From an uncultured Chloroflexia bacterium (lineage in GTDB: Bacteria; Chloroflexota; Limnocylindria; Limnocylindrales; CSP1-4), in contig CAVUJW010000023.1 of NCBI GenBank assembly GCA_963741915.1, positions 310,968 to 374,967 of the forward strand: 64,000 nucleotides of DNA, given 5' to 3'. Under the pieces are notes generated by a model. That model worked only from the letters and a program-made list of their open reading frames with translations, was not told the origin of the DNA and did no database searches. The translations under genes were made by a program, and so were the position numbers. Of the stretch, positions 21,586 through 59,921 are shown piece after piece; positions within the stretch are counted from its first letter, which is position 1; every line of letters starts with the position of its first letter.

Positions 21586-21598
21586 AGTCAACGACAAG

Positions 21599-46527: not shown

Positions 46528-46853
46528 CGGTCGAGCTGCCGGTCATCGGCCAGCCGAGGCTCGACCTCGCTGCCCCCGACGTGGCCGAGGCGGTCGCTGT
46601 CGCCGCCCTCCTCGCCGACCCGATCCGGGCCGGGATCCTGCGCATGCTGGCCGACGGGCCGCACTGCGTATGCGAGCTCGCGGCGACCCTCGGGGCGCGC
46701 GAGAACAACGTGAGCAACCACCTGGCGAGGCTGCGCGAGGCGGGGCTGGTCGTGGCCAGTCGGCACGCGGCGAACGCCCGCTTCCTGTACTACGAGCGTG
46801 ACGACGCCGCGGTGGTCGCCGCACGGGCCAGGATCACCGAGGTGCTCGGGTGA
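46524..46853 (+). CDS. arsR: ArsR/SmtB family metalloregulator
   Basis: ATG 46524 (ATGA overlap) in the tail of track ORF 45195..46853. LADPIRAGILRMLADGPHCVCELAATLGARENNVSNHLARLREAGLV with a CVC metal site. Confidence 0.85.
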   Translation: MTVELPVIGQPRLDLAAPDVAEAVAVAALLADPIRAGILRMLADGPHCVCELAATLGARENNVSNHLARLREAGLVVASRHAANARFLYYERDDAAVVAARARITEVLG

Positions 46854-47893
46854 CGACGGTCGCGCTCGGCGGCGCCCGACGCCAGCTCCCACTGCCGCTC
46901 GTGGTTGCCCTGGGGGCCATCGCGTGGCTGGTTGCCTGGATCGTCAACCTGCCGGCCGCCAACTGGCTCGCCTTCGACGCTCTGGGCCTCGAGCCCGGAT
47001 CGCACCTGGGCGAGGCCGTGGCGTTCTTCCTGCTCGACGTGCCGAAGGTGCTGCTGCTCCTGACCGGGATCGTCACCCTGGTCTCGTTCCTGCGCTCGTT
47101 CGTGTCGCCGGACCGGGTGCGCCGAACCCTCGCTGGCCGCGGCGTCCTGCCTGGCACCGTCGCCGCGGCCTCGTTCGGGGTCGTCACGCCCTTCTGCTCG
47201 TGCTCTGCCGTGCCCCTGTTCATCGGGTTCGTCGAGGCCGGTGTCCCGCTGGGCGTCACGTTCGCGTTCCTGGTCGCCTCGCCGATGGTCAACGAGGTCG
47301 CGCTGGTGCTGCTGTGGGGCCTGTTCGGACCCGGGATCGCGATCGCCTACATGGCGGCCGGGCTCACGGTCGCCGTGCTCGCGGGGCTCGTCATCGGACG
47401 CCTCGGCCTCGAGCGCTACGTCGAGGAGTACGTGTGGCAGATCCACGCCGGCGCCGCGATCGGCATCCGACCCACCCTCGCGGATCGGCTGCGAGACGCG
47501 TGGCGGGCGACCGTCGACATCCTGCGCCGGGTCTGGCCGTACGTGGTCGCCGGCATCGCGGTCGGGGCGCTGATCCACGGCTTCGTGCCCACGGACCTCG
47601 TGGTGACGCTGGGCGGGCGCGACAACCCGCTGGCCGTGCCGGCACTGATCGGCCTGGGCGTGCCCCTCTACAGCAACGCCGCGGGCACGATCCCGGTGGT
47701 CGAGGCGCTGCTGGGCAAGGGGCTGCCGATCGGGTCGGCGCTCGCGTTCATGATGGCCGTCACCGCCCTCTCGTTCCCCGAGCTCGTGATCCTGCGCCGG
47801 GTCATGAAGCCCCGCCTCATCGCCGTGTTCGTCATCGTGGTCGCCGCCGGGATCCTGGCGGTCGGCTACGGGTTCAACCTGCTGTACGCTTGA
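46850..47893 (+). CDS. permease of the ArsP/DUF318 family
   Basis: 347-aa polytopic ORF with VVTPFCSCSAVPLFIGF (paired Cys motif of this family). 4-nt overlap with arsR. Confidence 0.75.
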   Translation: MTTVALGGARRQLPLPLVVALGAIAWLVAWIVNLPAANWLAFDALGLEPGSHLGEAVAFFLLDVPKVLLLLTGIVTLVSFLRSFVSPDRVRRTLAGRGVLPGTVAAASFGVVTPFCSCSAVPLFIGFVEAGVPLGVTFAFLVASPMVNEVALVLLWGLFGPGIAIAYMAAGLTVAVLAGLVIGRLGLERYVEEYVWQIHAGAAIGIRPTLADRLRDAWRATVDILRRVWPYVVAGIAVGALIHGFVPTDLVVTLGGRDNPLAVPALIGLGVPLYSNAAGTIPVVEALLGKGLPIGSALAFMMAVTALSFPELVILRRVMKPRLIAVFVIVVAAGILAVGYGFNLLYA

Positions 47894-47904
47894 AGGAGCC
47901 CCAC

Positions 47905-48144
47905 ATGTCGCGCCTGATCGAGGTCCTGGGTCACGGATGCCAGAAATGCCGGTACGTCGAGGCGCTGGTGCGCGAGGTGGCCGCGGAGCGTGGCCTCGAC
48001 GCCGACATCCGCCACGTCACGGACGACGCGGAGATCGCCTCGCGCGGCGTGCTCTCGACGCCCGGCCTCGCGATCGACGGGACGGTCGTGATGGCCGGCC
48101 GGATCCCCACCCGGGAGCAGGTAGCGGCCTGGCTGGGCGCGTAG
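47905..48144 (+). CDS. small thioredoxin-fold protein (redox-active disulfide protein 2-like)
   Basis: 79 aa, MSRLIEVLGHGCQKCRYVEALV (CxxC), ...STPGLAIDGTVV. AAGGAG lies upstream. Confidence 0.75.
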   Translation: MSRLIEVLGHGCQKCRYVEALVREVAAERGLDADIRHVTDDAEIASRGVLSTPGLAIDGTVVMAGRIPTREQVAAWLGA

Positions 48145-48164
48145 GGACCGCGGAGGATCACCGG

Positions 48165-48656
48165 ATGCTGTCGCTGCGAACGACCAGCGAGGAGCACCAC
48201 GCGCGGATGCTCCCCCACGTCGACCGCCTGCTCGACCTCGCGGACATGGTCGGCCACGTCGAGTGCGCCGCGATCCACGAGACGTTCGAGCAGGAGTACG
48301 CGTTCATCGTCGGCCAGCTCGTGCCCCACATGCAGGCGATCGAGCAGACGCTCTACGACCGCGTCGAGGCCCTGCTCGAGGGCCGCCATTCGCTGGCGCC
48401 GATGCGCGCCGAGCACCGGTCGATGGAGCGCCTGATCGAGGAGCTGGGCCGCTACCGGCGGCACGTGGAGGGCTGCAGCTGGAGCGCGGTCGAGGGCATG
48501 GCGCTGCGCCGCGCGCTCTACCGCCTGCACTCGATCCTCAAGGTCCACCTGGCCGAGGAGGAGCTCTACCTGGGCGTCCTGGACCAGAGCCTGACCGACG
48601 ACGAGCGGGACCTGCTCGCGCGCGGGATCGACCACGCGACCGCCGAGCCGCTCTGA
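48165..48656 (+). CDS. hemerythrin domain protein, copy 1
   Basis: ATG 48165 preceded by GGAGGA. EEHHARMLPHVDRL...HMQAIEQTLY...MRAEHRSMERLI...LKVHLAEEELYL shows His/Glu ligand spacing of hemerythrin-like domains. Confidence 0.7.
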   Translation: MLSLRTTSEEHHARMLPHVDRLLDLADMVGHVECAAIHETFEQEYAFIVGQLVPHMQAIEQTLYDRVEALLEGRHSLAPMRAEHRSMERLIEELGRYRRHVEGCSWSAVEGMALRRALYRLHSILKVHLAEEELYLGVLDQSLTDDERDLLARGIDHATAEPL

Positions 48657-48667: not shown

Positions 48668-49303
48668 TCAGCCCGACGCGACCCGTCGCTTCCGGCGGCC
48701 CGCGGTCCACTCCAGGTACCGCGCGTCGAACTCAGCGATCAGCCGGGCGCGCTCCTTCATGACCGCGGCCCACTCGTCGAGCGCCGCGAACCCGGCCGGC
48801 GTCAGCTCGTAGTCGCGGCGTGCCGGACCCGTGCCGGTCGTCCACGATGAGCGGACCTGGCCGGCCTGCTCGAGGTCCCGCAGGGTGCGGTAGACCTGCC
48901 CCACGTCGACCGCACCGTAGGTGATGCCCAGCTGGGCCAGCTCGCCGACGATCGCGTAGCCGTGGCCCGTCCCCGAGGCGAGGAACGCCAGCACGAACGG
49001 CTCCATCCAGCGGTGGGCCCCGATCGGCGACCAGCCGCGGTGGACCGGGATCCCGGCCGGGTCGCGGTCCGAGGCGATCGCGGTCGAGTCGGCGGTCTCC
49101 GGCGTGGCCGGCCCGTCGGCCGCGACCGGATCGCCGGCTGCCGCAGGATCGCCGGCTGCCGCAGGATCGCCGGTGCGACCCGGCTCCTCGGGGGCTCGAG
49201 GCGGCACGTCCATGGCTGGGTCGAGGATAGGGGCTCCCCGGCTCGCCCGCCGCACCATCCGCCTGGTGGTCCGTCCCGTCGGCCCGGCCGTGGACCGTGC
49301 CAC
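48668..49303 (-). CDS. PadR-family transcriptional regulator with a long low-complexity N-terminal extension
   Basis: 211-aa ORF. PadR core FVLAFLASGTGHGYAIVGELAQLGITYGAVDVGQVYRTLRDLEQAGQVRSSW. N-terminus contains GDPAAAGDPAAAGDP. The true start is uncertain. Confidence 0.75.
   Translation of the reverse strand: MARSTAGPTGRTTRRMVRRASRGAPILDPAMDVPPRAPEEPGRTGDPAAAGDPAAAGDPVAADGPATPETADSTAIASDRDPAGIPVHRGWSPIGAHRWMEPFVLAFLASGTGHGYAIVGELAQLGITYGAVDVGQVYRTLRDLEQAGQVRSSWTTGTGPARRDYELTPAGFAALDEWAAVMKERARLIAEFDARYLEWTAGRRKRRVASG
49128..49176. repeat. in-frame 18-nt tandem repeat (2.7 copies of ggatcgccggctgccgca) in the PadR N-terminal extension
   Basis: Read directly. It encodes the GDPAAA repeats on the minus strand. 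Confidence 0.8.
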
Positions 49304-49306
49304 GGG

Positions 49307-49801
49307 TCAGGCCGTCGGCGCGAGCGGGTGGTCCATGGCGGCGGCCAGCAGGTCGGCGACCTCGCTGGTGACCCCGCGATCCACCAGGCGCAGGTACGCC
49401 TCCTCCTCGGCGAGATGGGTCTTGAGCAGTGCGTACAGCCCGAACATGACCCGACGCAGCGCGAGCGCCCGGCCCAGGGTCAGGTTGCCCGCCTGCAGCT
49501 CGCCGGCCAGCTTCGCATACTCGGCGACCTGCCGTCGCACCTCGTCGTGCTCGCGGCGCATGGGCGCCATCGAGTGGCGGTTCTGGAACATCCGCTCCAG
49601 CTCCGGGTAGAGGTTCCGCTCGGAGGCGTCGACGTGCGGCAGGAGCGACCCGGTCAGGAACCCGGACAGCTCCGCGAGCTCCGGACGGACGTCCTCGGCC
49701 TTCGCCGTCAGGAGGCGATCGGCCAGGTCCGGCATCCGGTCGACGTGGTGCTTGATCCGCTCGTGATGCTCGTGCGTCACCTGCGGCAGGGTCTGGGTCA
49801 T
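49307..49801 (-). CDS. hemerythrin domain protein, copy 2
   Basis: 164 aa in the tail of track ORF 49307..50887. THEHHERIKHHVDRM...LPHVDASERNLYPEL...MRREHDEVRRQV...LKTHLAEEEAYL. ATGA overlap with the upstream gene. Confidence 0.7.
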   Translation of the reverse strand: MTQTLPQVTHEHHERIKHHVDRMPDLADRLLTAKAEDVRPELAELSGFLTGSLLPHVDASERNLYPELERMFQNRHSMAPMRREHDEVRRQVAEYAKLAGELQAGNLTLGRALALRRVMFGLYALLKTHLAEEEAYLRLVDRGVTSEVADLLAAAMDHPLAPTA

Positions 49802-50973
49802 GGCGTGGCCTCCTTGGCCAGGGCGACGAAGAACAGCGCCACGGGCCGGTATACAGCATGGGCGAGCTTCATGAACGGCGCGAGCAGGACGAGCTCCATC
49901 GCCACCGCGACGTGGAGCAGGAACACCCAGTAGCCCCAGGCCGGCGCCGACGGCAGGTACAGCGCGAGCTCGATCACGAACCCGGTCACCCCGGTCACCC
50001 ACAGCAGTCCCAGCAGCATCCAGTCGGCGGTGGTCGACGAGCGGACCGACCGGTTGGCGGCGCGGTAGCGCTGGACGATGAGCATCGTCACGCCGTACAC
50101 GAGGAGGAAGCCGGCAACGGTGCCCAGCAGCCGAACGGGGTACCACACGGGCACGGGCGTGCCGGTCGCCTTGATCCCCAGCAGCGCGAGGCCGTAGTCC
50201 AGCCCGGTCGCCGCCAGCAGGCCGAGGAAGCCCCACACGGTGACCGCGTGGAGCAGCCAGCGACGCCGGAACCAGGGCAGCGCGGCGTCGTCCACGTCGC
50301 AGTCGGCGCGGAACCGGACCTGGCCCAGCGACTCGTGGGCAATGGCCGACCAAGCCGCCCGGGCGGAGCGGCCCAGGGCGGCACGACCGCCGAACACGCT
50401 TCCCCAGCCGACGCCCTCGCGCCGGCCGATCGCGCGGGCCATCGTGGCGATCCCCGCCAGCCCGGCGAGCACCACCACCAGCATCACGACGATGCCCAGG
50501 GTGTGGATCAGGTCCTCGGGGATGAACTCGAAGATCGCCAGCGACTGGCCGCTCTGGGGGCCGTGGGCCGCGTACATGAACAGGGCGAACAAGGCGGCGA
50601 TGACCACGGCCAGCACGGTCGCCAGGATGGGCTGCGTGTACATCGTCCAGGCGACGCGCGTCCGGTCGTAGCTCGCGATCGCATAGCGGCGGGTGGCGGC
50701 CATGAACTGCGACGGATCCGCCTGGGTGGGACAGGTCTCGGCGCACTCGCCGCACTGGTAGCAGGCCCACAGCTCCTTGCTCGACAGCAGGGCATCCTTC
50801 ATGCCCAGCTGCGCATAGCGGATGATCCGGCGTGGGAAGGTGGCGTCGGTCTCGGACAGCGGGCAGCTCGCGGTGCACGTGCCGCACGAGAAGCAGGCGC
50901 TCACGTCGGTGGCGCCGAAGCGCTGGATGTCGGGGTACAGGCCGAGGTCGAGCGGCGTGGTGGCGGCGGCCAT
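49798..50973 (-). CDS. QmoC-like protein: N-terminal 2x[4Fe-4S] ferredoxin domain fused to a NarI/HdrE-type membrane (heme b) domain
   Basis: ATG 50973 preceded by GGGAGGA. CFSCGTCTASCP and CYQCGECAETCP, followed by 5-6 TM segments with conserved His (WLLHAVTVWGF, FLLHVAVAMELV, KLAHAVYRP). Confidence 0.8.
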   Translation of the reverse strand: MAAATTPLDLGLYPDIQRFGATDVSACFSCGTCTASCPLSETDATFPRRIIRYAQLGMKDALLSSKELWACYQCGECAETCPTQADPSQFMAATRRYAIASYDRTRVAWTMYTQPILATVLAVVIAALFALFMYAAHGPQSGQSLAIFEFIPEDLIHTLGIVVMLVVVLAGLAGIATMARAIGRREGVGWGSVFGGRAALGRSARAAWSAIAHESLGQVRFRADCDVDDAALPWFRRRWLLHAVTVWGFLGLLAATGLDYGLALLGIKATGTPVPVWYPVRLLGTVAGFLLVYGVTMLIVQRYRAANRSVRSSTTADWMLLGLLWVTGVTGFVIELALYLPSAPAWGYWVFLLHVAVAMELVLLAPFMKLAHAVYRPVALFFVALAKEATP

Positions 50974-51218
50974 CAGGAGGTCCTCCCGGTGGGCTGGTAC
51001 TGGAAGTAGCCGTCGGTCTCGCTGCCCTTGACCTCGGCCAGCCAGCCGTAGCGGCGCATGCCCATCACCCAGAACACGACCTCGTGGGTGGGTGCCTCGA
51101 TGGCCCGGGCGATCTCGGGGACCGTCAGCGGGCCGTCCCACAGCGCGGCCAGGATCCGGGCGCGCATGACGGGCTCCTCGCGGATCACCTCGCGCACGTC
51201 GCGGTTGAGGGTGGGCAT
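50973..51218 (-). CDS. 81-aa winged-helix-like protein embedded in the redox operon
   Basis: MPTLNRDVREVIREEPVMRARILAALWDGPLTVPEIARAIEAPTHEVVFWVMGMRRYGWLAEVKG. Both ends overlap neighbouring genes by 1 nt (TGATG). Confidence 0.6.
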   Translation of the reverse strand: MPTLNRDVREVIREEPVMRARILAALWDGPLTVPEIARAIEAPTHEVVFWVMGMRRYGWLAEVKGSETDGYFQYQPTGRTS

Positions 51219-52981
51219 CAGGCGGGTACCTCCACCAGGCTGTCGATCATCGCGCTGACCTGGGCGTCGGTGTAGCCCAGCAGGTCGATCGCGTTCTCCG
51301 GGCACATCGGCACGCAGCCGCCGCATCCCTTGCAGCCGGTCGGGCTGATCACGGCGAAGTGGCGGTCGCCCGCCTCGGCCATCGAGATCGCGTCGTACGG
51401 GCAGGCCGTGAGGCAGTCGCCGCAGGCCGTGCAGGCAACGGGATCGACGGTCGCGACCAGCGGGTCCAGCTCGGTGAAGCCCTTCTTGAGCACCGCGCCG
51501 CTCTGGGTGACCGCGGCCAGCCCGGATGCCACGCTCTCGGCGGAGGTCTTGGGGCCCTGGCAGGCGCCCGCGATCAGCACGCCGTCCACGACGGTCTCGA
51601 CCGGGCGGAGCTTGGGATGGATCTCGTTGAAGAAGCCGTCGCTGCCGGCCGGCAGCTTGAGCACGCCGACCAGCTCCTCGTTCGCGCGCGGGACCATGCC
51701 CGTCACCAGCACCACGAGGTCGACCGGGATGGCGAGCTCGGTGCGCTCGGTGAGCAGGTCGGTCACGGTGACCGTCAGCCGCCCGTCCGGCGCCTGCGCG
51801 ACCGCCGGCGGCGCGTCGTTGTCGAACTTGAGGAACACAGAGCCCGTCTTGCGCGCCTCGGTGTACAGGGGCTCGAACTTGCCGTACGTGCGCATGTCGC
51901 GGTACAGGTGGAACTGGCGGATCGATGGGTCCAGCCCGGCCACGTCCACCGCCGTCTGGACGGTCGCGGCGCAGCAGAAGCGCGAGCAGTAGGCGTTGGC
52001 GCAGCCGTTGGTATTCCGGCTGCCGACGCAGTAGACATAGGCCACGCTGCGCACCGCGCGGCCCTTCCAGGCGAGCCCACCGCTGGACGCGTCGACGAGC
52101 GACTTGAACTCGGGCAGGGTGACCACGCCGTCGATCCCGTAGCCGAGCTCGCCGGCATCGGGCTGGTAGCTGTCGAAGCCGGTGGCGGCGACGATCGTCC
52201 CGACCGCGACCTCGATCGACGCGGCCCCCGGGCCTCCCACCCGAACGCTGACCTGGTAGTTGCCGAAGCTGCCGGCCTTGGCCACGACCTCGGCCCCGGT
52301 GAGGACCGTGATCGACGGTCGCCTGCGGACCTCGGCGACCAGCGTCTCGATGAGCTGCCGGCCCTCACGTCCGTGGGGGTACATCCGGCCGAGCTGGCGG
52401 ACCCAGCCGCCCAGCTCGAGCTCCCGCTCGACGATCGTGACCTGCAGCCCGATGTCGGCGAGGCCGATCGCGGCGCGCAGCCCCGTGGTCCCGCCGCCGA
52501 TCACGAGGGTGTGGGGCAGGGTGTCGACGACCATCGGGTCGAGGGGGGTCGTGAGCCGGGTGCGGGCGATCCCCGCCCGGACCAGCGCGGTCGCCTTGTC
52601 CGTCGCGGCGGCCTCGTCGTCGGTGTGCACCCACGAGCACTGCTCGCGGATGTTGACCTGCGTGTACTCGTACGGGTTGAGGCCCGCGCGGGCGGCGACG
52701 CCGCGGAACGTGTAGGTGTGGAGCTTGGGCGAGCAGGACGCGACCACCAGGCCGTCGAGCTGCTGGGCCTCGATGTCCGCGACCATATCCTGCTGGGTGG
52801 CGTCCGAGCAGGCGAACATCGCGGTCCTGGCGACGACGACGTCGCCGGCATCCTCGATGTCCGCGACGACCTTCTCGACATCGACGTAGTCGCTGATGTT
52901 GCCGCCGCAGTGGCACACGTAGACCCCGATGCGGCGGCCGGCCGCCTGGTCGGGAGTCTTCGGGTCGATCGACTCGTTCAT
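51218..52981 (-). CDS. HdrA-like FAD/FeS flavoprotein (heterodisulfide reductase subunit A family / QmoB-like)
   Basis: ATG 52981 inside track ORF 51218..53566. VYVCHCGGNISDYVD, LVIGGGTTGLRAAIGLADIG, CSRFCCAATV, C-terminal CTACGDCLTACP and CKGCGGCVPMCP. 587 aa. Confidence 0.85.
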   Translation of the reverse strand: MNESIDPKTPDQAAGRRIGVYVCHCGGNISDYVDVEKVVADIEDAGDVVVARTAMFACSDATQQDMVADIEAQQLDGLVVASCSPKLHTYTFRGVAARAGLNPYEYTQVNIREQCSWVHTDDEAAATDKATALVRAGIARTRLTTPLDPMVVDTLPHTLVIGGGTTGLRAAIGLADIGLQVTIVERELELGGWVRQLGRMYPHGREGRQLIETLVAEVRRRPSITVLTGAEVVAKAGSFGNYQVSVRVGGPGAASIEVAVGTIVAATGFDSYQPDAGELGYGIDGVVTLPEFKSLVDASSGGLAWKGRAVRSVAYVYCVGSRNTNGCANAYCSRFCCAATVQTAVDVAGLDPSIRQFHLYRDMRTYGKFEPLYTEARKTGSVFLKFDNDAPPAVAQAPDGRLTVTVTDLLTERTELAIPVDLVVLVTGMVPRANEELVGVLKLPAGSDGFFNEIHPKLRPVETVVDGVLIAGACQGPKTSAESVASGLAAVTQSGAVLKKGFTELDPLVATVDPVACTACGDCLTACPYDAISMAEAGDRHFAVISPTGCKGCGGCVPMCPENAIDLLGYTDAQVSAMIDSLVEVPA

Positions 52982-55746
52982 GCCGGCACCATCACGATCG
53001 CCTGCTCGGCCGCGGGCTTCGTGCGCTCGAGGTGGGCGGCCACCTGGGCGACCGCCGCACCGGCGTGAAGGATCGAGTCCGCAATGTCCTTGGCACCCGA
53101 CGCCGCCCCGGCCACGAACACCCCGGGGATGCTCGTGGCGCCCGGGTTGAGATCCTCCTCGGGCTCGGCCACGTAGCTCCATTCGTCGAGCGAGAGCTCG
53201 CCCACCTCGAACAGCTGCTCGGCATCGTGGTTGGGCTGGACGCCCACCGCCAGCACGACCAGGTCGTACTCGGCCTCCACGATCCCGCCGCCGTTCTCGA
53301 TGTCCTCGTACCGGAGCACGAGATCCCCGGTGGGTGTCTCGCTGACGTCGGCGACGCGGCCCTTCACGTAGGTGGCGCCCATCGCCTTCGCCTGCTCGTA
53401 AAACTCGTCGTAGCGCTTGCCCGGCGCCCGGATGTCCATGTAGTGGACCGTGATGTCGGCGAGCGGCAGGGCGCCCATCAGCAGCTGGTTCTGCTTGATC
53501 GAGTACATGCAGCAGAACCGGGAGCACAGCGGGTTGCCGACGGTCTCGTCGCGCGACCCGGTGCACAGGATGTAGGCGATCCGCTCGGGGACCTTGCCGT
53601 CGCCCGGCCGGAGGATCGTGTTGAACGGCCGGGTGGGGGCCAGCAGCCGGTCCATCTGCATCCCGGTGATGACGTTCTTGAACCGGCCGAAGCCGTACTC
53701 GGGTTTAGCGTCGGCGGGGAACAGCTTGAAGCCCGTCGACACGACCACGGCGCCAACCTCCGCCTCGAGGTGCTGGTCGCGCGCGTGGAGGTCGATGCAG
53801 CCGTCGACGGGGCACGCGGCGACGCACTCGTTGCATTCGGAGCACACGGCGCAGTCGATGCACCGGCCGGCCGCGGCGAGGGCCTCGGCCTCGCTGAGCG
53901 GGGCTTCCACCTCCGAGAAGTCGACCGGGGTTGCCAGCAGCACGGTCGCACCCGGTGTCGGCGGCCGCGACGCGTACCCGCGCTGGCGCGCGAGGACCTG
54001 CGCCTTGTCCACGACCGGGAGCCGGTCGTCGAAGCCGTCCATGGTGCCGCCCGTCAGCCAGCGGTCGATCATGTGCGCGGCCCGCCGGCCCTCGCCCACG
54101 GCGCGCGTGATGTCGGTCGGGCCGTTGACCACGTCGCCCGCCGCGAAGATGAACGGAACCTCCGTCTGGCAGGTCGTGGGGTCGGCGCGCAGCGTGCCCC
54201 GGGGGTTCGTCGCGAGCCCGCCGTTGAACGCGCCGGTGTCGGCCACCATGCCGATCGCGCTGACCACGATGTCGCACGGGAGGACGAGCTCGCTGCCCGG
54301 GATCGGCTCCGGTCGTCGCCGGCCGGAGGCATCCGGAGCCCCCAGCTCCATCAACGTGCAGCGCAGGCCGCTGACGGCGCCCCGCTCGTCGCCCACGACC
54401 TCGGTCGGGGCGACCAGGAGGCTGAACTCGACGCCCTCGCGCTGTGCGTCGTCGGCCTCGACGTGGTGGGCCGGCATCTCGCCCCGGCCGCGGCGGTAGG
54501 CCACGGTCACCGACGAGGCGCCCAGCCGGCGCGCGGTCCGCGCGACGTCCATCGCCACGTTGCCGCCGCCCACGACCACCACGCGCCGGCCGGCGACGTC
54601 CAGCGGCTCGTCGAGCTTGACCTTGCGCAGGAAGTCGGTTCCGCCCAGCACGCCCAGCCGGTCCTCGCCCGGGACGCCCAGGTTCATCGAGCGGTTGGTC
54701 CCGGTCGCGACCAGCACGGCGTCGAAGCCGTCGGCCTTGAGCGCGGCGAGGTCCCGGACCGGGCTGTTGGTCGCGATCTCCACGCCCAGGGCCCGGACGT
54801 TGTCGATGTCGCGGTCCACGACCGCCTCCGGGAGGCGGTACGACGGGATGGCCAGCCGGAGATAGCCGCCGGGCTCGGGGGCCGCCTCGAAGATCTTCAC
54901 GAGGTAGCCCTTGCGGGCGAGCTGCCAGGCCGAGGTCAGGCCGGCCGGGCCGGACCCGACGATCGCGATCCGGCGCCCGTTCGCCGGGGCGACCTCGATG
55001 CCAGTGCCATCGCCGTGCTCGTCGTGCACGTCCGAGACGAACCGCTTGAGCCGCCGGATGGGCAGCGTCCCCTCCAGCGAGCCCCGGGTGCACTCGCCCT
55101 CGCAGGGGGCGTAGCAGGCGCGTCCCAGCGTGCCCACCAGGGGCGTGGCGTCGAGCACCAGGCGGTACGCCTTCTCGTACTCGCCGCTCCGGATGAGCGA
55201 GACGTAGCCGTGGGCCTGGATCCCGGCCGGGCAGGCGAACGAGCAGGGCGAGCTGCCGGCGCGGTCGATGACCGCCTTCTTGGGCACCGCCTGGGGGAAC
55301 GCGATGTGGGCGGCCCGCCGGGCGACCAGGTCCGCGTTGAACTGGTCGGGCACCGCCACCGTGCACGCGGTCTCGCACTTCTGGCAGCCGGTGCAGGCGT
55401 CGATGTCGACGAAGCGGGCCTTGCGGGTGACCGACGCATGGAACCGTCCGTCCGCGGACCTGCGGATCCCGTCGACCTCGCTGTAGGTGAGAGCGGTGAT
55501 GTTGGGGTGGTGGATCGTCGCCGCCATCTTGGGCGTCGAGATGCAGCTGGCGCAGTCGAGCGTCGGGAACACCTTCGACAGCAGGATCATCTTGCCGCCG
55601 ACGCTGGCCTCCCGTTCGACCAGCAGGACCCGGTAGCCCATGTCGCCCAGCTTGAGGGCGGACTCCATGCCGCCGATCCCGCTGCCCACGACCAGGACGT
55701 CGTAGTCCACCTTGCTCGCGGCGGGCACCGTGCACGCTTCGGTCAT
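52978..55746 (-). CDS. HdrA-like flavoprotein with an inserted GltD/NfnB-like NAD(P)H-binding module (HdrL-like), 922 aa
   Basis: ATG 55746 preceded by GAGG. The HdrA N-part is DVLVVGSGIGGMESALKLGDMG...FPTLDCASCISTPKM. The insert is CPAGIQAHGYV...ACYAPCEGEC...IAIVGSGPAGLTSAWQLARKG...VVVVGGGNVAMDVAR...IFAAGDVV. This is followed by CIDCAVCSECNECVAACP and the HdrA C-part CSRFCCMYSIK...VFVAGAASG. Confidence 0.85.
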   Translation of the reverse strand: MTEACTVPAASKVDYDVLVVGSGIGGMESALKLGDMGYRVLLVEREASVGGKMILLSKVFPTLDCASCISTPKMAATIHHPNITALTYSEVDGIRRSADGRFHASVTRKARFVDIDACTGCQKCETACTVAVPDQFNADLVARRAAHIAFPQAVPKKAVIDRAGSSPCSFACPAGIQAHGYVSLIRSGEYEKAYRLVLDATPLVGTLGRACYAPCEGECTRGSLEGTLPIRRLKRFVSDVHDEHGDGTGIEVAPANGRRIAIVGSGPAGLTSAWQLARKGYLVKIFEAAPEPGGYLRLAIPSYRLPEAVVDRDIDNVRALGVEIATNSPVRDLAALKADGFDAVLVATGTNRSMNLGVPGEDRLGVLGGTDFLRKVKLDEPLDVAGRRVVVVGGGNVAMDVARTARRLGASSVTVAYRRGRGEMPAHHVEADDAQREGVEFSLLVAPTEVVGDERGAVSGLRCTLMELGAPDASGRRRPEPIPGSELVLPCDIVVSAIGMVADTGAFNGGLATNPRGTLRADPTTCQTEVPFIFAAGDVVNGPTDITRAVGEGRRAAHMIDRWLTGGTMDGFDDRLPVVDKAQVLARQRGYASRPPTPGATVLLATPVDFSEVEAPLSEAEALAAAGRCIDCAVCSECNECVAACPVDGCIDLHARDQHLEAEVGAVVVSTGFKLFPADAKPEYGFGRFKNVITGMQMDRLLAPTRPFNTILRPGDGKVPERIAYILCTGSRDETVGNPLCSRFCCMYSIKQNQLLMGALPLADITVHYMDIRAPGKRYDEFYEQAKAMGATYVKGRVADVSETPTGDLVLRYEDIENGGGIVEAEYDLVVLAVGVQPNHDAEQLFEVGELSLDEWSYVAEPEEDLNPGATSIPGVFVAGAASGAKDIADSILHAGAAVAQVAAHLERTKPAAEQAIVMVPA

Positions 55747-55751
55747 CTCGG

Positions 55752-56192
55752 TCACCTCGCGGACGCCGGGCCGAGCGCGGCCAGGGCGCTCGAGAACTGG
55801 GTCACGTGCTTGGTGAACGGCTCGGAGCAGACGGAGCAGATGGCGGCCATCCGCACCCGGCCGTCCAGGCCGCGCTGCTTGAGCCGCTGCTGGGCGTCCG
55901 CGACGACCTTCGCCGAGCGCTTGCCGCAATCGGGCAGGTAGGCGCACTCGTCACCGTCCGAGGCCACGAACACCCCGTCGAACCCGGACTCGAGCGCGCG
56001 CACGATCCACGACGGCCGGATGCCGCTGGTGCACGGCAGGCCGATGACCCGCACGCCCGGCGAGTAGTGCATGTGGGCGCTGCCGGCCAGGTCGATGCCC
56101 GGGTCGGAGATGTTGTTCGTGGAGAACACGAGGATCCGCGGGACGAACGTGTCGCCCGGGGCCCGCGGCTCGGTGGCGGCGGGGGCAGACAT
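55752..56192 (-). CDS. MvhD/FlpD-like protein (methyl-viologen-reducing hydrogenase delta subunit family)
   Basis: 146-aa ORF. ILVFSTNNISDPGIDLAG...VIGLPCTSGIRPSWIVRALESGFDGVFVASDGDECAYLPDC fits the family pattern. Confidence 0.8.
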   Translation of the reverse strand: MSAPAATEPRAPGDTFVPRILVFSTNNISDPGIDLAGSAHMHYSPGVRVIGLPCTSGIRPSWIVRALESGFDGVFVASDGDECAYLPDCGKRSAKVVADAQQRLKQRGLDGRVRMAAICSVCSEPFTKHVTQFSSALAALGPASAR

Positions 56193-56252
56193 CGGCAGAC
56201 AGCTCCTGGCCGGCCCGCGGGGCGCCGGGCGCCCCGCGATGGCCGATCGTGA

Positions 56253-56513
56253 CTACTTGCGGCGGATGACGAACACGCGGTCGTAGCCGTCGGCGGCGAG
56301 CGACCCGAGGAACTCGTGGCCGACCTTGCCCGACCAGGCGCCGATGTCGGACTTGGTGACCGGGTCGGTCGACCAGATCTCGATCAGCGAGCCGATGGAC
56401 ACGGTGCCCATCGCCTTCTTGGCCTCGAGCAGCGGCCCCGGGCAGGCGGCGCCGCGGGCGTCGATCACCTTGTCGGGGGTCAGGGTCTGGAGCTGTTCCA
56501 GGGTGGCGGTCAT
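56253..56513 (-). CDS. TusA-family sulfurtransferase (SirA-like)
   Basis: 86 aa in the tail of track ORF 56253..56918. KVIDARGAACPGPLLEAKKAM carries the conserved Cys-Pro-x-Pro motif. Confidence 0.85.
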   Translation of the reverse strand: MTATLEQLQTLTPDKVIDARGAACPGPLLEAKKAMGTVSIGSLIEIWSTDPVTKSDIGAWSGKVGHEFLGSLAADGYDRVFVIRRK

Positions 56514-56527
56514 GGGATCGGTTCCTC

Positions 56528-56896
56528 CTAGTACACGAGGCTGTTGGTGGCCGAGGTGATCTCGGCGATGAAGCGGCCGGCGGCCACGATCTCCGCGCCC
56601 GGGACCAGGTCGTCCAGCGTGATCGAGCGGCTCTTGCAGCACGGCCCGCACACGAGCAGCTGACCGCCCATCTCGCGCACGTCGGCGAGCAGCTTGGCCA
56701 GCGGCGGGAACTCGGGCGCCTGGACCGTCTCGGCGACACCCGCCTTGACCAGGTCCACGCCCGGGCCCTGGAAGCCCATGACCACCTCCACGTCCGAGGC
56801 CAGGGCTGCCGCCGCCATCACGAACGGGATGGACGCGTGCTCCGGAAACTCCGGACCGTGCATCACCATGAACACGAGCTTCTCGGTATCCGCCAT
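56528..56896 (-). CDS. DsrE/DsrF-family sulfur relay protein
   Basis: 122-aa ORF. KLVFMVMHGPEFPEHASIPFVMA...LLVCGPCCKSRSI with conserved Cys. Confidence 0.8.
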   Translation of the reverse strand: MADTEKLVFMVMHGPEFPEHASIPFVMAAAALASDVEVVMGFQGPGVDLVKAGVAETVQAPEFPPLAKLLADVREMGGQLLVCGPCCKSRSITLDDLVPGAEIVAAGRFIAEITSATNSLVY

Positions 56897-56941
56897 GCAT
56901 GGCTCCTTGCGGGCCCAATGGGGCCCGGCGCTGAGAGGACG

Positions 56942-57349
56942 TCAGATGAACAGGACCTGGCCGTCTTCGGCGGCCATGAGGAAGGTCGCGATCCCGCCGG
57001 ACGCGTCGACCAGCGGGTCCATCGCGGTGATGTCGATGCCCAGCACGTCGAGCGACCCGGAGCAGGCGAGGATCGAGAGCTCACCCAGCTCCTTGGCCAT
57101 CCGGAACGTGTCCAGCCAGGGGATCGCCGCGGTGCCCTTGACCGGCCTGCTGGCGCCGGGCGCGGCGGCCTCGTAGGCCAGGCCATGGTCGACCTCGACC
57201 CGATCCGCCCGGAACGCGTCGAGCGCCCAGTACTGGAGCAGGATGTTGACCGGCCGGCCCATCGCGGCCGCGCCGGCCGCGAGCGTGGCCGCCGCGTGGA
57301 GCTTGTCGGCCGTGCCGGAGAACAGGACGATGGACAGGCTGTCGCTCAT
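56942..57349 (-). CDS. DsrE/DsrF/DsrH-like family protein
   Basis: MSDSLSIVLFSGTADKLHAAATLAAGAAAMGRPVNILLQYWALD...ILACSGSLDVLGI. The track ORF starts at 57376; 57349 avoids overlap with the upstream regulator. Confidence 0.7.
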   Translation of the reverse strand: MSDSLSIVLFSGTADKLHAAATLAAGAAAMGRPVNILLQYWALDAFRADRVEVDHGLAYEAAAPGASRPVKGTAAIPWLDTFRMAKELGELSILACSGSLDVLGIDITAMDPLVDASGGIATFLMAAEDGQVLFI

Positions 57350-57356
57350 GGGTGGG

Positions 57357-57842
57357 TCACCTTGTCGGGTTGGCATGCACGGCCGGCCCGCGATGGCGCG
57401 GCGCGGGACGAGGGATGGTGGTCCGTTCGGCGGCCGCGAGGCTGCCCAGCGCCGACAGGCGGCGCACGATGACGTTGCGCATCATGTCGCACGCGGCGAG
57501 GATCTCGGGATCGGCCAGCCGGTATCGGACCACGCGCCCGTCGCGGCCGGCCTCCACGAGCCCCACCGACCGCATGGCCGCCAGGTGCTGGGACACGGCC
57601 GCCTGGCCGAGGTCGAGCTCGCGGGCGAGCTCGGTGACCCCCAGGGTGTGCGCGCCCAGCAGGTGGATGATCCGCAGCCGGTGGGGGCTGGCCAGGGCGC
57701 GGATCAGCGCGATCTGGATCAGGTCGATCTCGTTGACGGGGTCGAACACCCGTGGCTCCTGTGCGGCGTTGCCGGCGACCTCCCGGTCGGTCGCCCACGG
57801 CGACCGGAGCATGGATGCGCGGCTTGTCTGTTCGTCATACAT
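57357..57842 (-). CDS. ArsR/SmtB-family transcriptional regulator
   Basis: LIQIALIRALASPHRLRIIHLLGAHTLGVTELARELDLGQAAVSQHLAAMRSVGLVEAGRDGRVVRYRL. The start is ATG 57842 or 57812. The track ORF 57357..57980 is longer. Confidence 0.75.
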   Translation of the reverse strand: MYDEQTSRASMLRSPWATDREVAGNAAQEPRVFDPVNEIDLIQIALIRALASPHRLRIIHLLGAHTLGVTELARELDLGQAAVSQHLAAMRSVGLVEAGRDGRVVRYRLADPEILAACDMMRNVIVRRLSALGSLAAAERTTIPRPAPRHRGPAVHANPTR

Positions 57843-57852
57843 ATATATATGT
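57839..57852. promoter_or_regulatory. 14-nt alternating-AT perfect palindrome ACATATATATATGT at the 5' end of the ArsR-type gene
   Basis: Read directly and highly atypical for this GC-rich DNA. It could be a -10/unwinding element or an operator. It overlaps the candidate start codon 57842. Confidence 0.4.
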
Positions 57853-58034
57853 CGATGACATGTATTCGCCCTGAGCCACTTGTCATGGATTGAGCGGGAC
57901 GGGCACGGACCGGGCGCTGCCGAACGACCCGTCGGGCGGGGACCGCTCCGCCGCCGGGCCGCGCGGGAGCTGACCGTCAACCGGCGACGCCCGGCGCCCG
58001 GGCCTCGTGCCGCGGGGGCTCAGGCCGCCAGGGT

Positions 58035-59153
58035 TCAGGCGGCGGGCAGCTCGATCTCGAACCGCGCGCCGGCGCCCGGCTCGTTGGCCGCGCGCACGCT
58101 GCCACCGTGGGCCTCGACGACGCCGCGGACGATCGCCAGGCCCAGCCCGGACGTCCCGGTGGACCGGTCGCGCGCCGGGTCCGCCTGGTAGAACCGCTCG
58201 AACACATGGGACAGGTCATCCGCCGCGATCCCCGCGCCCGAGTCCGTCACCGCGATCACCGTGCGGCCGGGCCCGGCAGCGGCCGCAGCCAGCCGGATCC
58301 AGCCTCCTGCGGGCGCATGCCGTAGGGCGTTGTCGCCCAGTGCCGCAAGGACCTGCCGCAGCCGATCCGGGTCGGCCGAGACCGTCACTCCCGGGGCCTC
58401 GGTCCACTCGACCCGGATCCCGGAGGCGGCCGCCTGGGCGTCCAGGTCGCGGGCCAGCGCGGCCAGCACCGGGGTCATCGGCAGCACCTGGCGCCGCAGC
58501 GGCAGGACGCCGGCATCGGCAAGGCTGACCGTCCGCAGGTCGTCCACGATCCGGCCCAGCAGGCGGGCCTGGTCGCGGATCGTGTCGAGGTGGCGGTCGT
58601 CGTGGTCGTAGACGCCGTCGAGCACCGCGGAGGTGGTGGCGTCGATCACCGCGAGCGGGGTCCGCAGCTCATGGGCGGCGTCCTGGAAGAACCGGCGCCG
58701 GGCCACCTCCGTGGCCTGGAGGTCCGCGGCCATCGCGTCGAACGAGCGCGCGAGCGACCCGATCTCGTCGCTCCGGCCCTCCAGCCCGGACCGGGCAGCG
58801 AGCTCGCCGCGGGCAACCGCGGCCGCGGCGTCCTCGAGCCGGCCCAGCGGGCGCGTCATCCGGCTCGCGATCGCCAGGCCGACCAGGCTGGCCAGGCCGG
58901 CTGCGACCACCGCGACCACCATGATCGTGACCGTCGTCTCCTGCTGGATCTGCGCCGCGTGCAGGCCGGCACCCGGACCGGGTCCCGGTCCCTGGCCCGG
59001 TCCGCGGCCGGCGCCCGTCCCCGTGCCCGTGCCGTCGGCCTCGAACGCCGCGAAGCCCCGGCCGACGATCGCCGGGGCGGTGAGGGCAACCGCGGCGGCG
59101 GTCAGCACCGCGACCAGCGCGAACGCGACGGCGAGGCGAACCCTGAGGCTCAC
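58035..59153 (-). CDS. sensor histidine kinase (HAMP-HisKA-HATPase)
   Basis: 372-aa ORF. H-box AAHELRTPLAVI and ATPase motifs GLGLAIVRGVVEAHGG. Confidence 0.88.
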   Translation of the reverse strand: MSLRVRLAVAFALVAVLTAAAVALTAPAIVGRGFAAFEADGTGTGTGAGRGPGQGPGPGPGAGLHAAQIQQETTVTIMVVAVVAAGLASLVGLAIASRMTRPLGRLEDAAAAVARGELAARSGLEGRSDEIGSLARSFDAMAADLQATEVARRRFFQDAAHELRTPLAVIDATTSAVLDGVYDHDDRHLDTIRDQARLLGRIVDDLRTVSLADAGVLPLRRQVLPMTPVLAALARDLDAQAAASGIRVEWTEAPGVTVSADPDRLRQVLAALGDNALRHAPAGGWIRLAAAAAGPGRTVIAVTDSGAGIAADDLSHVFERFYQADPARDRSTGTSGLGLAIVRGVVEAHGGSVRAANEPGAGARFEIELPAA

Positions 59154-59860
59154 GGTCGGGCGCCGCGGTAGCCGATCCCTCGGACCGTCTCGATGTACGG
59201 CCGGCCGTCCGGCCGGTCGCCGAGCTTGCGGCGCAGGTTCTTGACGTGCGAGTCGATGGTCCGGTCGAACGCCTCGAACGCCTCGCCGAACACGGCCGCG
59301 CCCAGCTGCTCGCGGGTGAGCGCCACGCCCGGATGGGCCGCCAGCGTTGCCAGCAGGTCGAGCTCGGCCCGGGTGAGCGGGACCACGGCGGCACCGCGGC
59401 GAACCTCGCGGGCGGCGCGATCGATCTGGAGATCGAGGTACGAGGTGATCGCGCTCGCGTCGGTCGCGCTCGCGTCGGTCGCCCCCGGCGTGGCGCCGGC
59501 GGCGCGACGCAGGACCGCACCCACCCGGGCAACGAGCTCGCGCGGCTCGAACGGCTTGGTCACGTAGTCGTCGGCCCCGATCTCGAGACCGGCCACGCGG
59601 TCGATGACCTCGTCTCGCGCGGTGAGCATGATCACGGCCGCGGGACTGCCGTCGGCGCGCAGCTCGCGCAGCACGTCGAACCCCGAGCGCCGCGGGAGCA
59701 TCACGTCCAGCACCACCAGGTCGGGCGGGTCCGCGCGGGCGAGCGCGAGCGCCGTCTCCCCGTCGAGCGCGGTCACGACCGCGTGCCCGTCGCGCACGAG
59801 GTAGGCGCGAACGACGTCGACGATGTGCGGCTCGTCGTCGACGACCAGGATGCGGGCCAT
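59150..59860 (-). CDS. OmpR-family response regulator
   Basis: ATG 59860 inside track ORF 59150..60046. MARILVVDDEPHIVDVV...VVLDVMLPRRSG...TVRGIGYR. Confidence 0.9.
   Translation of the reverse strand: MARILVVDDEPHIVDVVRAYLVRDGHAVVTALDGETALALARADPPDLVVLDVMLPRRSGFDVLRELRADGSPAAVIMLTARDEVIDRVAGLEIGADDYVTKPFEPRELVARVGAVLRRAAGATPGATDASATDASAITSYLDLQIDRAAREVRRGAAVVPLTRAELDLLATLAAHPGVALTREQLGAAVFGEAFEAFDRTIDSHVKNLRRKLGDRPDGRPYIETVRGIGYRGARP
59451..59480. repeat. in-frame 15-nt tandem duplication (gcgctcgcgtcggtc x2) in the response-regulator interdomain linker
   Basis: Read directly. It encodes ATDAS-ATDAS. Confidence 0.8.
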
Positions 59861-59921
59861 GGGATGAGCATAGGGAGACGGCCGGGCCGGCGAACAGGTC
59901 CGGTCGTCCCCCGATCGATCC

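Follow-up and report, generated by a model that had tools for sequence, protein, structure and literature searches.

The stretch of DNA analysed here, 64 kb from an uncultured Chloroflexia bacterium (hereafter the window), carries on its minus strand one tightly packed unit of eleven genes, joined by overlaps and short gaps, in which a sulfur-relay set precedes an iron-sulfur flavoprotein complex of Hdr/Qmo-like composition. The gene order is ArsR, DsrE2B-like, DsrE3-like, TusA, MvhD-like, HdrL (a fusion of HdrA with a GltD-type module, 922 amino acids (aa)), a 587-aa HdrA, an 81-aa winged helix-turn-helix (wHTH) protein, QmoC, hemerythrin and PadR. An earlier note, made from the sequence of the window alone, had put this linkage forward, and a survey of gene neighbourhoods shows that the sulfur-relay and Hdr/Qmo-like genes are linked across about nine phyla and in one archaeon. 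As a general model we propose, tentatively and with slightly less than even confidence, that the products form a membrane-anchored HdrA-type iron-sulfur flavoprotein complex that would act on carrier-bound sulfane sulfur.

The conservation of the linkage was established by two surveys. In the first, a profile of the fusion protein was scanned over one genome per GTDB species, yielding 80 loci that were annotated by searching all their open reading frames (ORFs) with the window proteins. The 17 loci whose fusion protein is at least 50% identical to that of the window, including L001-L003 which were obtained from contig look-ups, are called Group A. They form a clade on the neighbour-joining tree of HdrL and come from Chloroflexia, Actinomycetota (including Gaiellales and Thermoleophilia), Acidobacteriota, Zixibacteria, Aminicenantes, Ignavibacteriales, Bacteroidales, Deferrimicrobium and one Thermoplasmata archaeon. 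The second survey was a metagenome scan anchored independently on the 81-aa protein, and gave 80 loci as well.

The genes for TusA, the MvhD-like protein and HdrL open the cluster in 17 of 17 Group A loci. tusA stands directly before mvhD in most of them, an exception being L011 where arsR lies between the two; both genes touch or overlap in L009, L010 and L013, and a dsrE gene is placed between mvhD and hdrL in L005 and L007. Where contigs are long enough, hdrL is followed by the genes for HdrA, the 81-aa protein and either QmoC or HdrC. On the long contigs of L001-L003, with fusion proteins 80-86% identical to that of the window, the whole order DsrE-DsrE-TusA-MvhD-HdrL-HdrA-81aa-QmoC-hemerythrin-PadR-hemerythrin is kept. 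In two of these, both long-read assemblies, the hdrA-wHTH-qmoC part is fused or split when compared with L001 and the window (L002 12769-16014 and L003 14562-16013), apparently through frameshifts introduced during assembly and not as true variation. An all-against-all clustering of the Group A ORFs recovered, beyond the core, two DsrE types (9 and 8 loci), ArsR, PadR (5 loci) and rhodanese (4 loci); PadR and rhodanese apart, no family from outside this set was present in more than 3 of the 17 loci.

The metagenome loci have the same organisation. The 81-aa protein is encoded between hdrA and qmoC or hdrC wherever those were detected (two short contigs stop before qmoC), and TusA, MvhD and HdrL were present on 18 of the 18 contigs reaching 5.6 kb upstream. 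On those extending far enough upstream, DsrE was found in 12 of 13 and ArsR in 11 of 13. A full-length QmoC was encoded in 42 of 45 loci, and an HdrB-like protein in 2. The linkage is thus kept in both surveys, the two gene sets staying together in relatives, and it is not due to chance because the adjacency is maintained across phyla while the gene order around the core varies.

More distant relatives (Group B, 36-43% identity) are hosted by Desulfobacterota, Anaerolineae, Dehalococcoidia, peat Acidobacteria and others. They mostly comprise an HdrL of about 1,500 aa, MvhD, and HdrC/D- or QmoC-like neighbours, with no TusA, DsrE or wHTH protein. Such sets represent the classical HdrL type, known from Desulfobacterium autotrophicum (PMC2702500). 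Five of these loci, all from Desulfobacterales (L049, L053, L056, L059 and L069), show a single in-frame stop about 150-180 nucleotides (nt) into hdrL, near the FPTLDCxxC pair; its position is consistent with selenocysteine, as reported for the D. autotrophicum HdrL.

In the window itself, the eleven genes were recovered at the places given by the earlier note from their ORFs, from Pfam and NCBIfam matches and from the guanine-cytosine (GC) content at third codon positions (Table 1). Pfam and NCBIfam hidden Markov models (HMMs) support every named domain assignment. Four junctions overlap, as had been claimed (HdrL/HdrA by 4 nt, HdrA/wHTH by 1, wHTH/QmoC by 1 and QmoC/hemerythrin by 4), and the remaining ones are gaps of 3-60 nt. 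Third-position GC is 0.91-0.99 in every operon gene, and a gene caller based on it selects the same frames. A composition scan found GC content even along the operon, and recent horizontal transfer, for which this uniformity gives no compositional sign, was set aside. A DnaG primase is encoded at 35-37 kb of the window; the locus is therefore chromosomal. Scanning 48.0-58.6 kb for promoter and terminator consensus sequences returned nothing, such a scan being uninformative at about 72% GC, and an Rfam scan of the window returned a tRNA-Asn only.

Table 1. Genes of the operon and its neighbourhood, and HdrC+HdrB-like genes of related loci (window coordinates unless a locus is named; stop codons included).
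Feature	Position	Strand	Evidence or remark
ArsR/SmtB-family regulator	57357-57842, likelier start 57812	minus	Pfam HTH_5 4e-11
DsrE2B-like sulfurtransferase, 135 aa	56942-57349	minus	Pfam DrsE_2 6e-11
DsrE3-like sulfurtransferase, 122 aa, CGPCC	56528-56896	minus	Pfam DsrE 8e-17
TusA sulfur carrier, 86 aa, ACPGP	56253-56513	minus	Pfam TusA 1e-16, good ribosome-binding site
MvhD/FlpD-like iron-sulfur protein, 146 aa	55752-56192	minus	Pfam FlpD 6e-26
HdrL (HdrA-GltD fusion), 922 aa	52978-55746	minus	Pyr_redox_2 + Fer4_20 within HdrA
HdrA-like flavoprotein, 587 aa	51218-52981	minus	HdrA2 model 470 bits
Winged-helix (wHTH) protein, 81 aa	50973-51218	minus	fold match, no NCBIfam family
QmoC-like membrane subunit, 391 aa	49798-50973	minus	NCBIfam qmoC NF038018, Fer4_8, Nitrate_red_gam
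Hemerythrin-domain protein, 164 aa	49307-49801	minus	Pfam hemerythrin 6e-12
PadR-family regulator	48668-49303 (start 49303 or 49258)	minus	Pfam PadR 3e-13
Second hemerythrin	48165-48656	plus (strand opposite padR)	Pfam hemerythrin 1e-10
Rhodanese with N-terminal anchor-like segment	61103-61669	minus	Pfam rhodanese 1e-10
170-aa membrane protein paired with rhodanese	60594-61106	minus	neighbour of rhodanese
HdrC+HdrB-like genes	L006 15008-16310		replace QmoC
HdrC+HdrB-like genes	L008 14693-15945		replace QmoC
HdrC+HdrB-like genes	L009 5944-7307		replace QmoC
HdrC+HdrB-like genes	L017 14760-16473		replace QmoC
HdrC+HdrB-like genes	L071 14686-15965		replace QmoC
HdrC+HdrB-like genes	L078 about 14700-15981		replace QmoC

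The redox core is built on two unlike HdrA proteins. A module binding a reduced nicotinamide nucleotide (NAD(P)H) had been read into one of them, and a GltD-type module is indeed inserted in the 922-aa protein, which scores 454 bits with NF040770 and 475 bits with PRK12771 (NCBIfam). Residues 16-129 and 629-911 of HdrL match HdrA, and residues 154-655 match PRK12771/GltD/NfnB. The protein is therefore organised as a thioredoxin-reductase-like domain binding flavin adenine dinucleotide (FAD), in which the GltD/NfnB-type module, with its own FAD, nucleotide site and 2x[4Fe-4S], splits the inserted-ferredoxin domain. Both the N-terminal and the C-terminal HdrA domains are absent, and the FAD domain retains the Cys pair C65/C68. 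In type III HdrA, the GltD module likewise sits at the inserted ferredoxin domain and NAD(P)H has been proposed to replace the ferredoxin site (PMC12054007). HdrL shares with that type the FAD domain interrupted by a GltD-type module and the adjacent mvhD, the gene directly upstream encoding an FlpD domain with atypical cysteines. K409 and E356 (M. wolfeii numbering) are the bifurcation-associated residues of HdrA (PMC12054007). HdrL has K751 at the position of K409 and an Asp at that of E356; K751 and the Cys ligands are invariant in an alignment of 10 sequences 38-80% identical to the window protein. Residues of the K409/E356 type look necessary for bifurcation and are not sufficient for it. 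The nucleotide-binding Rossmann motif reads GGGNVA followed by AYRRGRGEMPA. The combination of GGGNVA with YRR suggests a preference for NADPH over NADH, given the GXGXXA rule cited in PMC12054007 and by comparison with GltD and NfnB.

The 587-aa HdrA aligns to residues 5-234 and 317-646 of M. wolfeii HdrA (5ODC, 1.8e-108). It keeps the N-terminal [4Fe-4S], FAD and C-terminal 2x[4Fe-4S] ferredoxin domains and misses the inserted ferredoxin domain. Q stands in place of K409 and K in place of E356, and the FPTxDCxxC cysteine pair is missing from this protein and from every relative seen. As far as aligned domains go, HdrL and the 587-aa HdrA are shown to be complementary halves of the methanogen HdrA homodimer. 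For both, methanogen HdrA/HdrA2 are the best-matching NCBIfam models, and PDB comparisons gave 1e-96 to 1e-108 with methanogen HdrA and 3e-27 to 7e-40 with sHdrA (6TJR). Homologues of the fusion protein number in the thousands, and metagenomes of soils, wetlands and sediments yielded them in quantity. The best 120 in a collection of 5.8 billion proteins are 79-100% identical, and the named ones among these 120 are proteins of metagenome-assembled genomes of 'Chloroflexota bacterium' or 'Candidatus Limnocylindrales', which makes a Limnocylindria-like Chloroflexota genome the probable source of the window.

MvhD is a separate gene, as had been noted, and its product is unusual. The canonical N-terminal CNWC is missing in all 16 Group A sequences aligned. 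They share five invariant Cys (PCT/S, D/E-C, DC and the C-terminal ICSVC), three of which are gained, whereas MvhD of the TusA-free Group B loci retains CNWC. The MvhD-like protein can probably still bind a cluster, with a different set of ligands and one spare Cys.

The 81-aa protein contains no cysteines, and the start and stop of its gene each overlap a neighbour by 1 nt. Stand-alone homologues of about 80 aa fall into 2,702 clusters at 90% identity. An AlphaFold2 model reached a mean predicted local distance difference test (pLDDT) score of 53 from the single sequence and of 89 with an alignment. Foldseek and a PDB profile search retrieved generic ArsR/SmtB/MarR-type wHTH folds only, and no known Hdr subunit such as the 'hyp' protein of sHdr. 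The protein is probably a subunit or adaptor, since its gene is translationally coupled within the structural genes in bacteria and in one archaeon; it is possibly a regulator.

QmoC carries two CxxCxxCxxxCP motifs (HdrC-like, 2x[4Fe-4S]) and a NarI/HdrE-type membrane domain. This is the architecture of the QmoC family, although its score with the curated model is 208 bits for a cutoff of 300. Four transmembrane His are conserved among all relatives, Group B included, as expected for two predicted hemes b. A hemerythrin gene lies 3' of qmoC in 32 of the 35 metagenome loci reaching far enough downstream. Hemerythrin of the operon type was detected only where the full-length QmoC form is present, and the hemerythrin-PadR-hemerythrin trio is conserved in L001-L004 and many metagenome loci. 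The hemerythrin weakly matches di-iron proteins of Fe-S repair (23 bits, far under the cutoff).

The earlier note had described the complex as lacking HdrB and HdrC. This holds for the window, where a profile made from the HdrB-like proteins of relatives detected no CCG-domain protein at E <= 10, but not for the clade, sister lineages of which carry HdrC and an HdrB-like protein. Its statement on Apr, Sat and Dsr fits what was found: none of these families was seen among the Pfam-scanned window genes or recurred in the 17 related loci, no dedicated Apr or Sat profile having been run, so that the association with aprBA and sat typical of QmoABC is missing within that scope. The HdrC+HdrB form occurs in six survey loci (Table 1) and several metagenome loci, in lineages including Gaiellales, Thermoleophilia, Zixibacteria, Acidobacteriota and one Thermoplasmata archaeon. 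There, the 81-aa gene is followed by an HdrC-like di-cluster protein of about 100 aa and by an HdrB-like protein of 322-343 aa with one Pfam CCG domain (pattern HDSC...CCGG...CPxC). The two-CCG HdrB of methanogen HdrABC thus has no counterpart in the window, and the HdrB-like protein of the relatives shows a single CCG domain. A CxPC-type DsrE3-like gene overlaps the 3' end of the hdrB-like gene in L009 and L017.

On the HdrL tree, the QmoC-type loci of Chloroflexota and Actinomycetes make up one subclade and the HdrCB-type loci of Gaiellales and Thermoleophilia branch at the base; L014, the only other QmoC-type locus of the tree, is on a separate branch. Tentatively, as this is a rough distance tree, QmoC would have replaced HdrCB at least twice and the HdrCB form looks ancestral. 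In the Qmo of sulfate reducers, QmoABC alternates with QmoAB-HdrCB, and the two are seen as modules that can stand in for each other in the electron coupling of a distinct sulfur enzyme (PMC10504309). The analogy suggests that the QmoC/HdrCB position is here too an exchangeable coupling module, to the quinone pool in one case and to a thiol/disulfide couple in the other.

The sulfur-relay part is of a known kind. The DsrE2B-like protein has a single Cys, in LACSGS, and its best PDB match is 2QS7 (4.5e-18), that is SSO1126, a DsrE2B; the DsrE3-like protein matches weakly (2e-4) 3MC3, a DsrE3A (PMC4175335). In the latter, the active-site Cys is followed three residues on by a second one (CGPCC; CxPC in relatives). 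This CxPC is conserved in L001, L004, L008, L009, L017 and L071, its CGPC form is made of the same four residues as the thioredoxin motif, and it could allow an internal disulfide. TusA best matches 1PAV (1.6e-16). NCBIfam contains no family for the DsrE2B-like protein and none for the wHTH protein. In Metallosphaera cuprina, dsrE3A-dsrE2B-tusA adjoins sHdr genes and DsrE3A hands thiosulfonate to TusA (PMC4175335). In bacteria, DsrE3B and DsrE3C hand sulfane sulfur to TusA, which co-purifies with sHdr proteins (PMC11094781). TusA, DsrE3/DsrE2 and an ArsR-type regulator, which accompany sHdr, are all found in the window: the accessory sulfur module is already known and is here joined to a different redox core.

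ArsR has a single Cys, in helix alpha5 (ILAACDMM), which is kept in most relatives. It passes the cutoff of NCBIfam HTH_metalloreg (77 bits), with sub-threshold matches to BigR, TsoR and CmtR; a function as persulfide sensor is plausible, though the alpha2 Cys of SqrR and BigR is missing. An AT-rich palindrome of overlapping inverted repeats (57832-57889) lies upstream of arsR and is a candidate operator/promoter region. The start at 57812 is likelier than that at 57842 because the latter falls within the palindrome. Palindromes of the TGTCA...TGACA type are also found 5' of the cluster in L002 (7768-7789) and L001 (8320-8355), the latter repeat being TGTCA-N18-TGACA although no arsR adjoins there. 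Both rhodaneses pointed out earlier (31331 and 61103) were retrieved by Pfam. The second is paired with a 170-aa membrane protein, and the pair stands directly upstream of arsR in L002 and L003; it is a likely sulfur input. In the window a three-gene insert (58035-60488), encoding a 188-aa secreted protein, a response regulator and a histidine kinase, parts it from arsR. Rhodanese-containing proteins are also encoded near the cluster in L006 and L078.

We propose the following mechanism for the general model. The heterodimer of HdrL and the 587-aa HdrA would mimic one 'lane' of the methanogen HdrA dimer and expose three ports. In methanogen HdrA, the N-terminal cluster domain is the docking side of MvhD and the C-terminal ferredoxin domain that of HdrC. 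The first port would be NADP(H) at the GltD module of HdrL. The second would be menaquinone, reached via the C-terminal ferredoxin domain of the 587-aa HdrA and QmoC, or, in sister lineages, a thiol/disulfide couple at HdrC and the one-CCG HdrB. At the third port, the MvhD-like protein would sit at the N-terminal domain of the 587-aa HdrA and receive sulfur from TusA, itself loaded by rhodanese and the DsrE proteins, so that the third redox partner would be the sulfane sulfur (persulfide or thiosulfonate) on TusA. TusA-bound sulfur is placed there because TusA is the sole constant partner without a port of its own, and because tusA shows, in several lineages, translational coupling with the mvhD-like gene and co-occurs with the altered cysteines. 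With NADPH as donor, the HdrL flavin would bifurcate: one electron would go downhill to menaquinone, while the other, of low potential, would pass the 587-aa HdrA and then the MvhD-like protein before it reaches the sulfur on its carrier, and sulfide would be released. Reactive sulfur species would probably relieve the repression of the operon by the ArsR-type regulator. The potentials of NADPH/NADP+ and menaquinone are about -320 mV and about -74 mV, respectively, with a mean of about -197 mV. This mean is close to the sulfane/sulfide couples, therefore the reaction, which would be near equilibrium, could run either way and a reverse run is possible. The reductive direction was chosen because of the NADPH-type signature, and we are less confident in it than in the general model.

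Several points weigh against this proposal. No sulfur-reactive site is recognised in the QmoC form (CCG domain, siroheme and molybdopterin are all missing), and TusA has no redox cofactor. The CxPC DsrE encoded beside HdrB in the HdrCB form hints at a sulfur chemistry that would take place at the very port QmoC replaced. ArsR does not have the features of the persulfide sensors SqrR, BigR and sHdrR, since it is devoid of the alpha2 Cys and scores 41 bits with BigR for a cutoff of 155. Finally, we infer the NADPH preference, the direction of flow and the bifurcation each from sequence. The fuller statement, according to which these proteins make up a new bifurcating enzyme class working between TusA sulfane sulfur, NADP(H) and quinone (ancestrally the disulfide of the one-CCG HdrB), with the MvhD-like protein as reactive site and the wHTH protein as adaptor, is one that we regard as fairly unlikely.

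The alternative that survives best, although we hold it to be rather unlikely, is that the same complex runs oxidatively. Electrons of sulfide or sulfane sulfur would enter at the TusA/MvhD-like port and bifurcate to menaquinone (downhill) and NADP+ (uphill), so that aerobic soil bacteria would gain respiratory electrons and NADPH without reverse electron transport. The mean of -197 mV matches sulfane/sulfide couples (about -200 to -270 mV), thermodynamics being applied here by inference. The QmoC form is found in likely respiring lineages, Chloroflexota and Actinomycetes, and ArsR-type regulators with DsrE3/TusA accompany the sulfur-oxidising sHdr systems. Moreover, in an aerobic Chloroflexi isolate a TusA/DsrE/Hdr cluster, of the sHdr-Etf-LbpA type and not of the present one, is up 45-fold in persistence (PMC6776052). 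On the other hand, the complex has no site for oxidising sulfur past the disulfide/persulfide level, the profile search found no HdrB in the window and no lipoate-binding protein was seen among its scanned genes, and the GXGXXA and YRR signature appears closer to NADPH-using reductive enzymes. Many carriers of the HdrCB form also belong to lineages generally held to be anaerobic.

It is also possible, and in our view distinctly unlikely, that the complex is no sulfur enzyme but an NADPH:menaquinone oxidoreductase which, in the manner of FixABCX or Nfn, bifurcates to a low-potential carrier such as ferredoxin. TusA, DsrE and ArsR would then, with the same low probability, serve regulation or upkeep, for instance as a source of sulfur for Fe-S clusters. 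The lack of a sulfur-reactive site in the QmoC form speaks for it, as do the related HdrL-MvhD sets (36-43% identity) without TusA, the Fe-S assembly genes (NifU, NUBPL/Mrp-type, NifX-like) adjoining the cluster in L006, L009 and L014, and the faint resemblance of the hemerythrin to Fe-S repair proteins. However, no locus of the clade is without TusA, whose gene often shows translational coupling to mvhD, DsrE genes lie within the structural genes (L005, L007) or overlap hdrB (L009, L017), and TusA goes together with the cysteine pattern that sets the MvhD-like protein of this clade apart.

An oxidation of TusA-bound sulfane sulfur to sulfite of the sHdr type shares the accessory module (ArsR-type regulator, DsrE2B-like and DsrE3-like proteins, TusA and a nearby rhodanese). 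It is very improbable, as the window is devoid of HdrB1/B2, HdrC1/C2 or any CCG domain, no lipoate-binding protein is encoded among the scanned neighbours, and HdrA is of the long methanogen type, with a GltD fusion, in place of the short sHdrA of about 350 aa. A canonical QmoABC serving the reductase of adenosine 5'-phosphosulfate in sulfate reduction or sulfite oxidation is more improbable still: there are two HdrA-like proteins and a membrane subunit whose best NCBIfam match is qmoC, but this match (208 bits) is under the 300-bit cutoff, no aprBA or sat is linked in the 17 related loci or among the scanned window genes, MvhD is separate, one HdrA carries the GltD module, and both HdrA-like proteins best match methanogen HdrA models. 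That two unrelated operons, one for sulfur relay and the other Hdr/Qmo-like, merely lie side by side is hardly credible, for although there are 60-nt and 45-nt gaps inside the sulfur-relay part and the consensus scan is silent on promoters and terminators, the two sets stay neighbours in about nine phyla and one archaeon with a varying order around the core.

The surroundings of the cluster were examined as well. In the window, 45454-48656 (plus strand) encodes an ACR3/SBF transporter, an ArsR, an ArsP_1 permease and a Thioredoxin_3 protein, followed by the second hemerythrin converging on padR. A link with arsenic was rejected, these ACR3-ArsR-ArsP-thioredoxin genes being present only in the closest relatives (L002, L003 and L117) and not clade-wide; a link with selenium was rejected too, the similarities being merely weak ones of YedF and YgfK type. 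Two cupredoxin/plastocyanin-like copper proteins (38910-39632 and 42353-43009) and a small heavy-metal-associated-like protein (37769-38062) suggest a copper-handling neighbourhood. Farther away, from about 5900 to 31235, extends an island-like stretch with three large MalT/LuxR-type regulators and the tRNA-Asn (31161-31235) at its end. Within it are an AbiEii toxin gene (20045-20875) and a DDE transposase that is broken into two ORFs (17592-19162); two intervals, 21.4-24.5 kb and 27.2-31.1 kb, are poor in GC and in coding sequence. In related loci, a CysM-like pyridoxal-phosphate enzyme, a JAB domain and a ThiS-ThiF-rhodanese fusion adjoin the cluster in L078 (3873-6774). L006 encodes NifU, an NUBPL/Mrp-type NTPase with an NifX-like domain and a CoA-disulfide-reductase-like protein with a rhodanese domain (16786-23528). 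L014 encodes an SQR/NDH-2-like flavoprotein and a thioredoxin (748-3624), both confirmed by Pfam, next to an ORF that, judged from its sequence, resembles thioredoxin reductase.

HdrA-based complexes are textbook examples of flavin-based electron bifurcation and, to our knowledge, few of them beyond the methanogen enzymes have a defined function. The present clade is tractable: its gene set is fixed, it comes in two natural variants (coupled to quinone or to disulfide), and the operon also codes for a protein that is a likely substrate. If TusA-bound sulfur is a partner, the cluster would link the sulfur-carrier network to NADPH and respiration. Sulfur cycling is, as far as we know, not a trait usually ascribed to Limnocylindria-like Chloroflexota, Gaiellales, Thermoleophilia or Acidobacteriota. 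Should the reading as a new enzyme class be true, oxic and micro-oxic soils would harbour a widespread and so far unaccounted way of cycling sulfur and of balancing NADPH against quinone, nearly identical copies numbering in the thousands in soil, wetland and sediment metagenomes of Chloroflexota and Actinomycetota. 'Type II Qmo' proteins have been noted in organisms without Dsr or Apr, and experiments have been called for (Neukirchen et al., PMC10504309); a defined function would give meaning to these and to the HdrL sets in organisms without Apr or Dsr.

The claim that no characterised complex has this subunit set was upheld as to the set, since a full-text literature search found no description of the combination TusA-MvhD-like-HdrL-HdrA-wHTH-QmoC/HdrCB, and has to be qualified as to the parts, which are known singly: HdrL/type III HdrA (PMC2702500, PMC12054007), type II Qmo (PMC10504309) and DsrE2B-DsrE3-TusA (PMC4175335). 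With QmoABC and QmoAB-HdrCB, the system shares two HdrA-derived flavoproteins, an HdrC-HdrE fusion as membrane subunit, and the alternation of a QmoC form with a soluble HdrC+HdrB form; type II Qmo sets are already reported from organisms without Apr or Dsr. It differs from QmoABC in that no aprBA or sat is linked, QmoC is under the family cutoff, one HdrA has the GltD/NADPH module, and TusA, DsrE and the 81-aa wHTH protein accompany the complex. In addition, QmoB carries a C-terminal MvhD-like domain, whereas here the two HdrA-like proteins stand beside an MvhD-like protein that is encoded by a separate gene and has another cysteine pattern.

The HdrL-MvhD of D. autotrophicum is an HdrA with a GltD insertion next to MvhD (PMC2702500). 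The window set has in common with it and with type III HdrA the insertion at the inserted ferredoxin domain, the neighbouring mvhD and the predicted link from NAD(P)H to flavin. In contrast, the HdrL-MvhD relatives of Desulfobacterota, Anaerolineae and others are 36-43% identical and mostly about 1,500 aa long, some appear to encode selenocysteine, and they have a canonical CNWC in MvhD and no TusA, DsrE or wHTH protein. For archaeal type III HdrA, GXGXXG is reported, compared with the GXGXXA (NADPH-type) of the window HdrL.

The sHdr systems (PMC11094781, PMC4175335, PMC6776052) have the same DsrE2B-like and DsrE3-like proteins, TusA, nearby rhodanese and ArsR-family regulator. The core of the window is without their HdrB1/B2/C1/C2, the sole HdrC-like domain being fused in QmoC, and without EtfAB/EMO; LbpA and lipoate genes are absent among the operon genes and the Pfam-scanned neighbours at 38-64 kb, a scan that did not take in every ORF of the window. 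Moreover, HdrA is here long and paired with HdrL, and QmoC links to quinone. The T. roseum cluster was discarded as a match, being of the sHdr-Etf-LbpA type.

FlxABCD-HdrABC of Desulfovibrio is described as an NADH-dependent Hdr acting on DsrC (cited in PMC10504309 and PMC6776052). In function it comes closest to the HdrCB form, with a pyridine-nucleotide input, the MvhD-like FlxD, HdrA/C/B and a sulfur carrier as proposed substrate. The NAD(P)H module is however fused into HdrA here and not borne by separate FlxABC proteins, the carrier is TusA/DsrE and not DsrC, and the window form has QmoC instead of HdrBC. With MvhADG-HdrABC of methanogens (5ODC), the system shares the HdrA fold, the cofactor-binding cysteines and the N- and C-terminal domains (E about 1e-97 to 1e-108), as well as the K409 equivalent in HdrL; it has no hydrogenase and no two-CCG HdrB, and the homodimer is replaced by two unlike, complementary HdrA-like proteins. 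By analogy, the system would work most like Qmo and FlxABCD-HdrABC, and it is built from HdrL/type III HdrA and the accessory module of sHdr.

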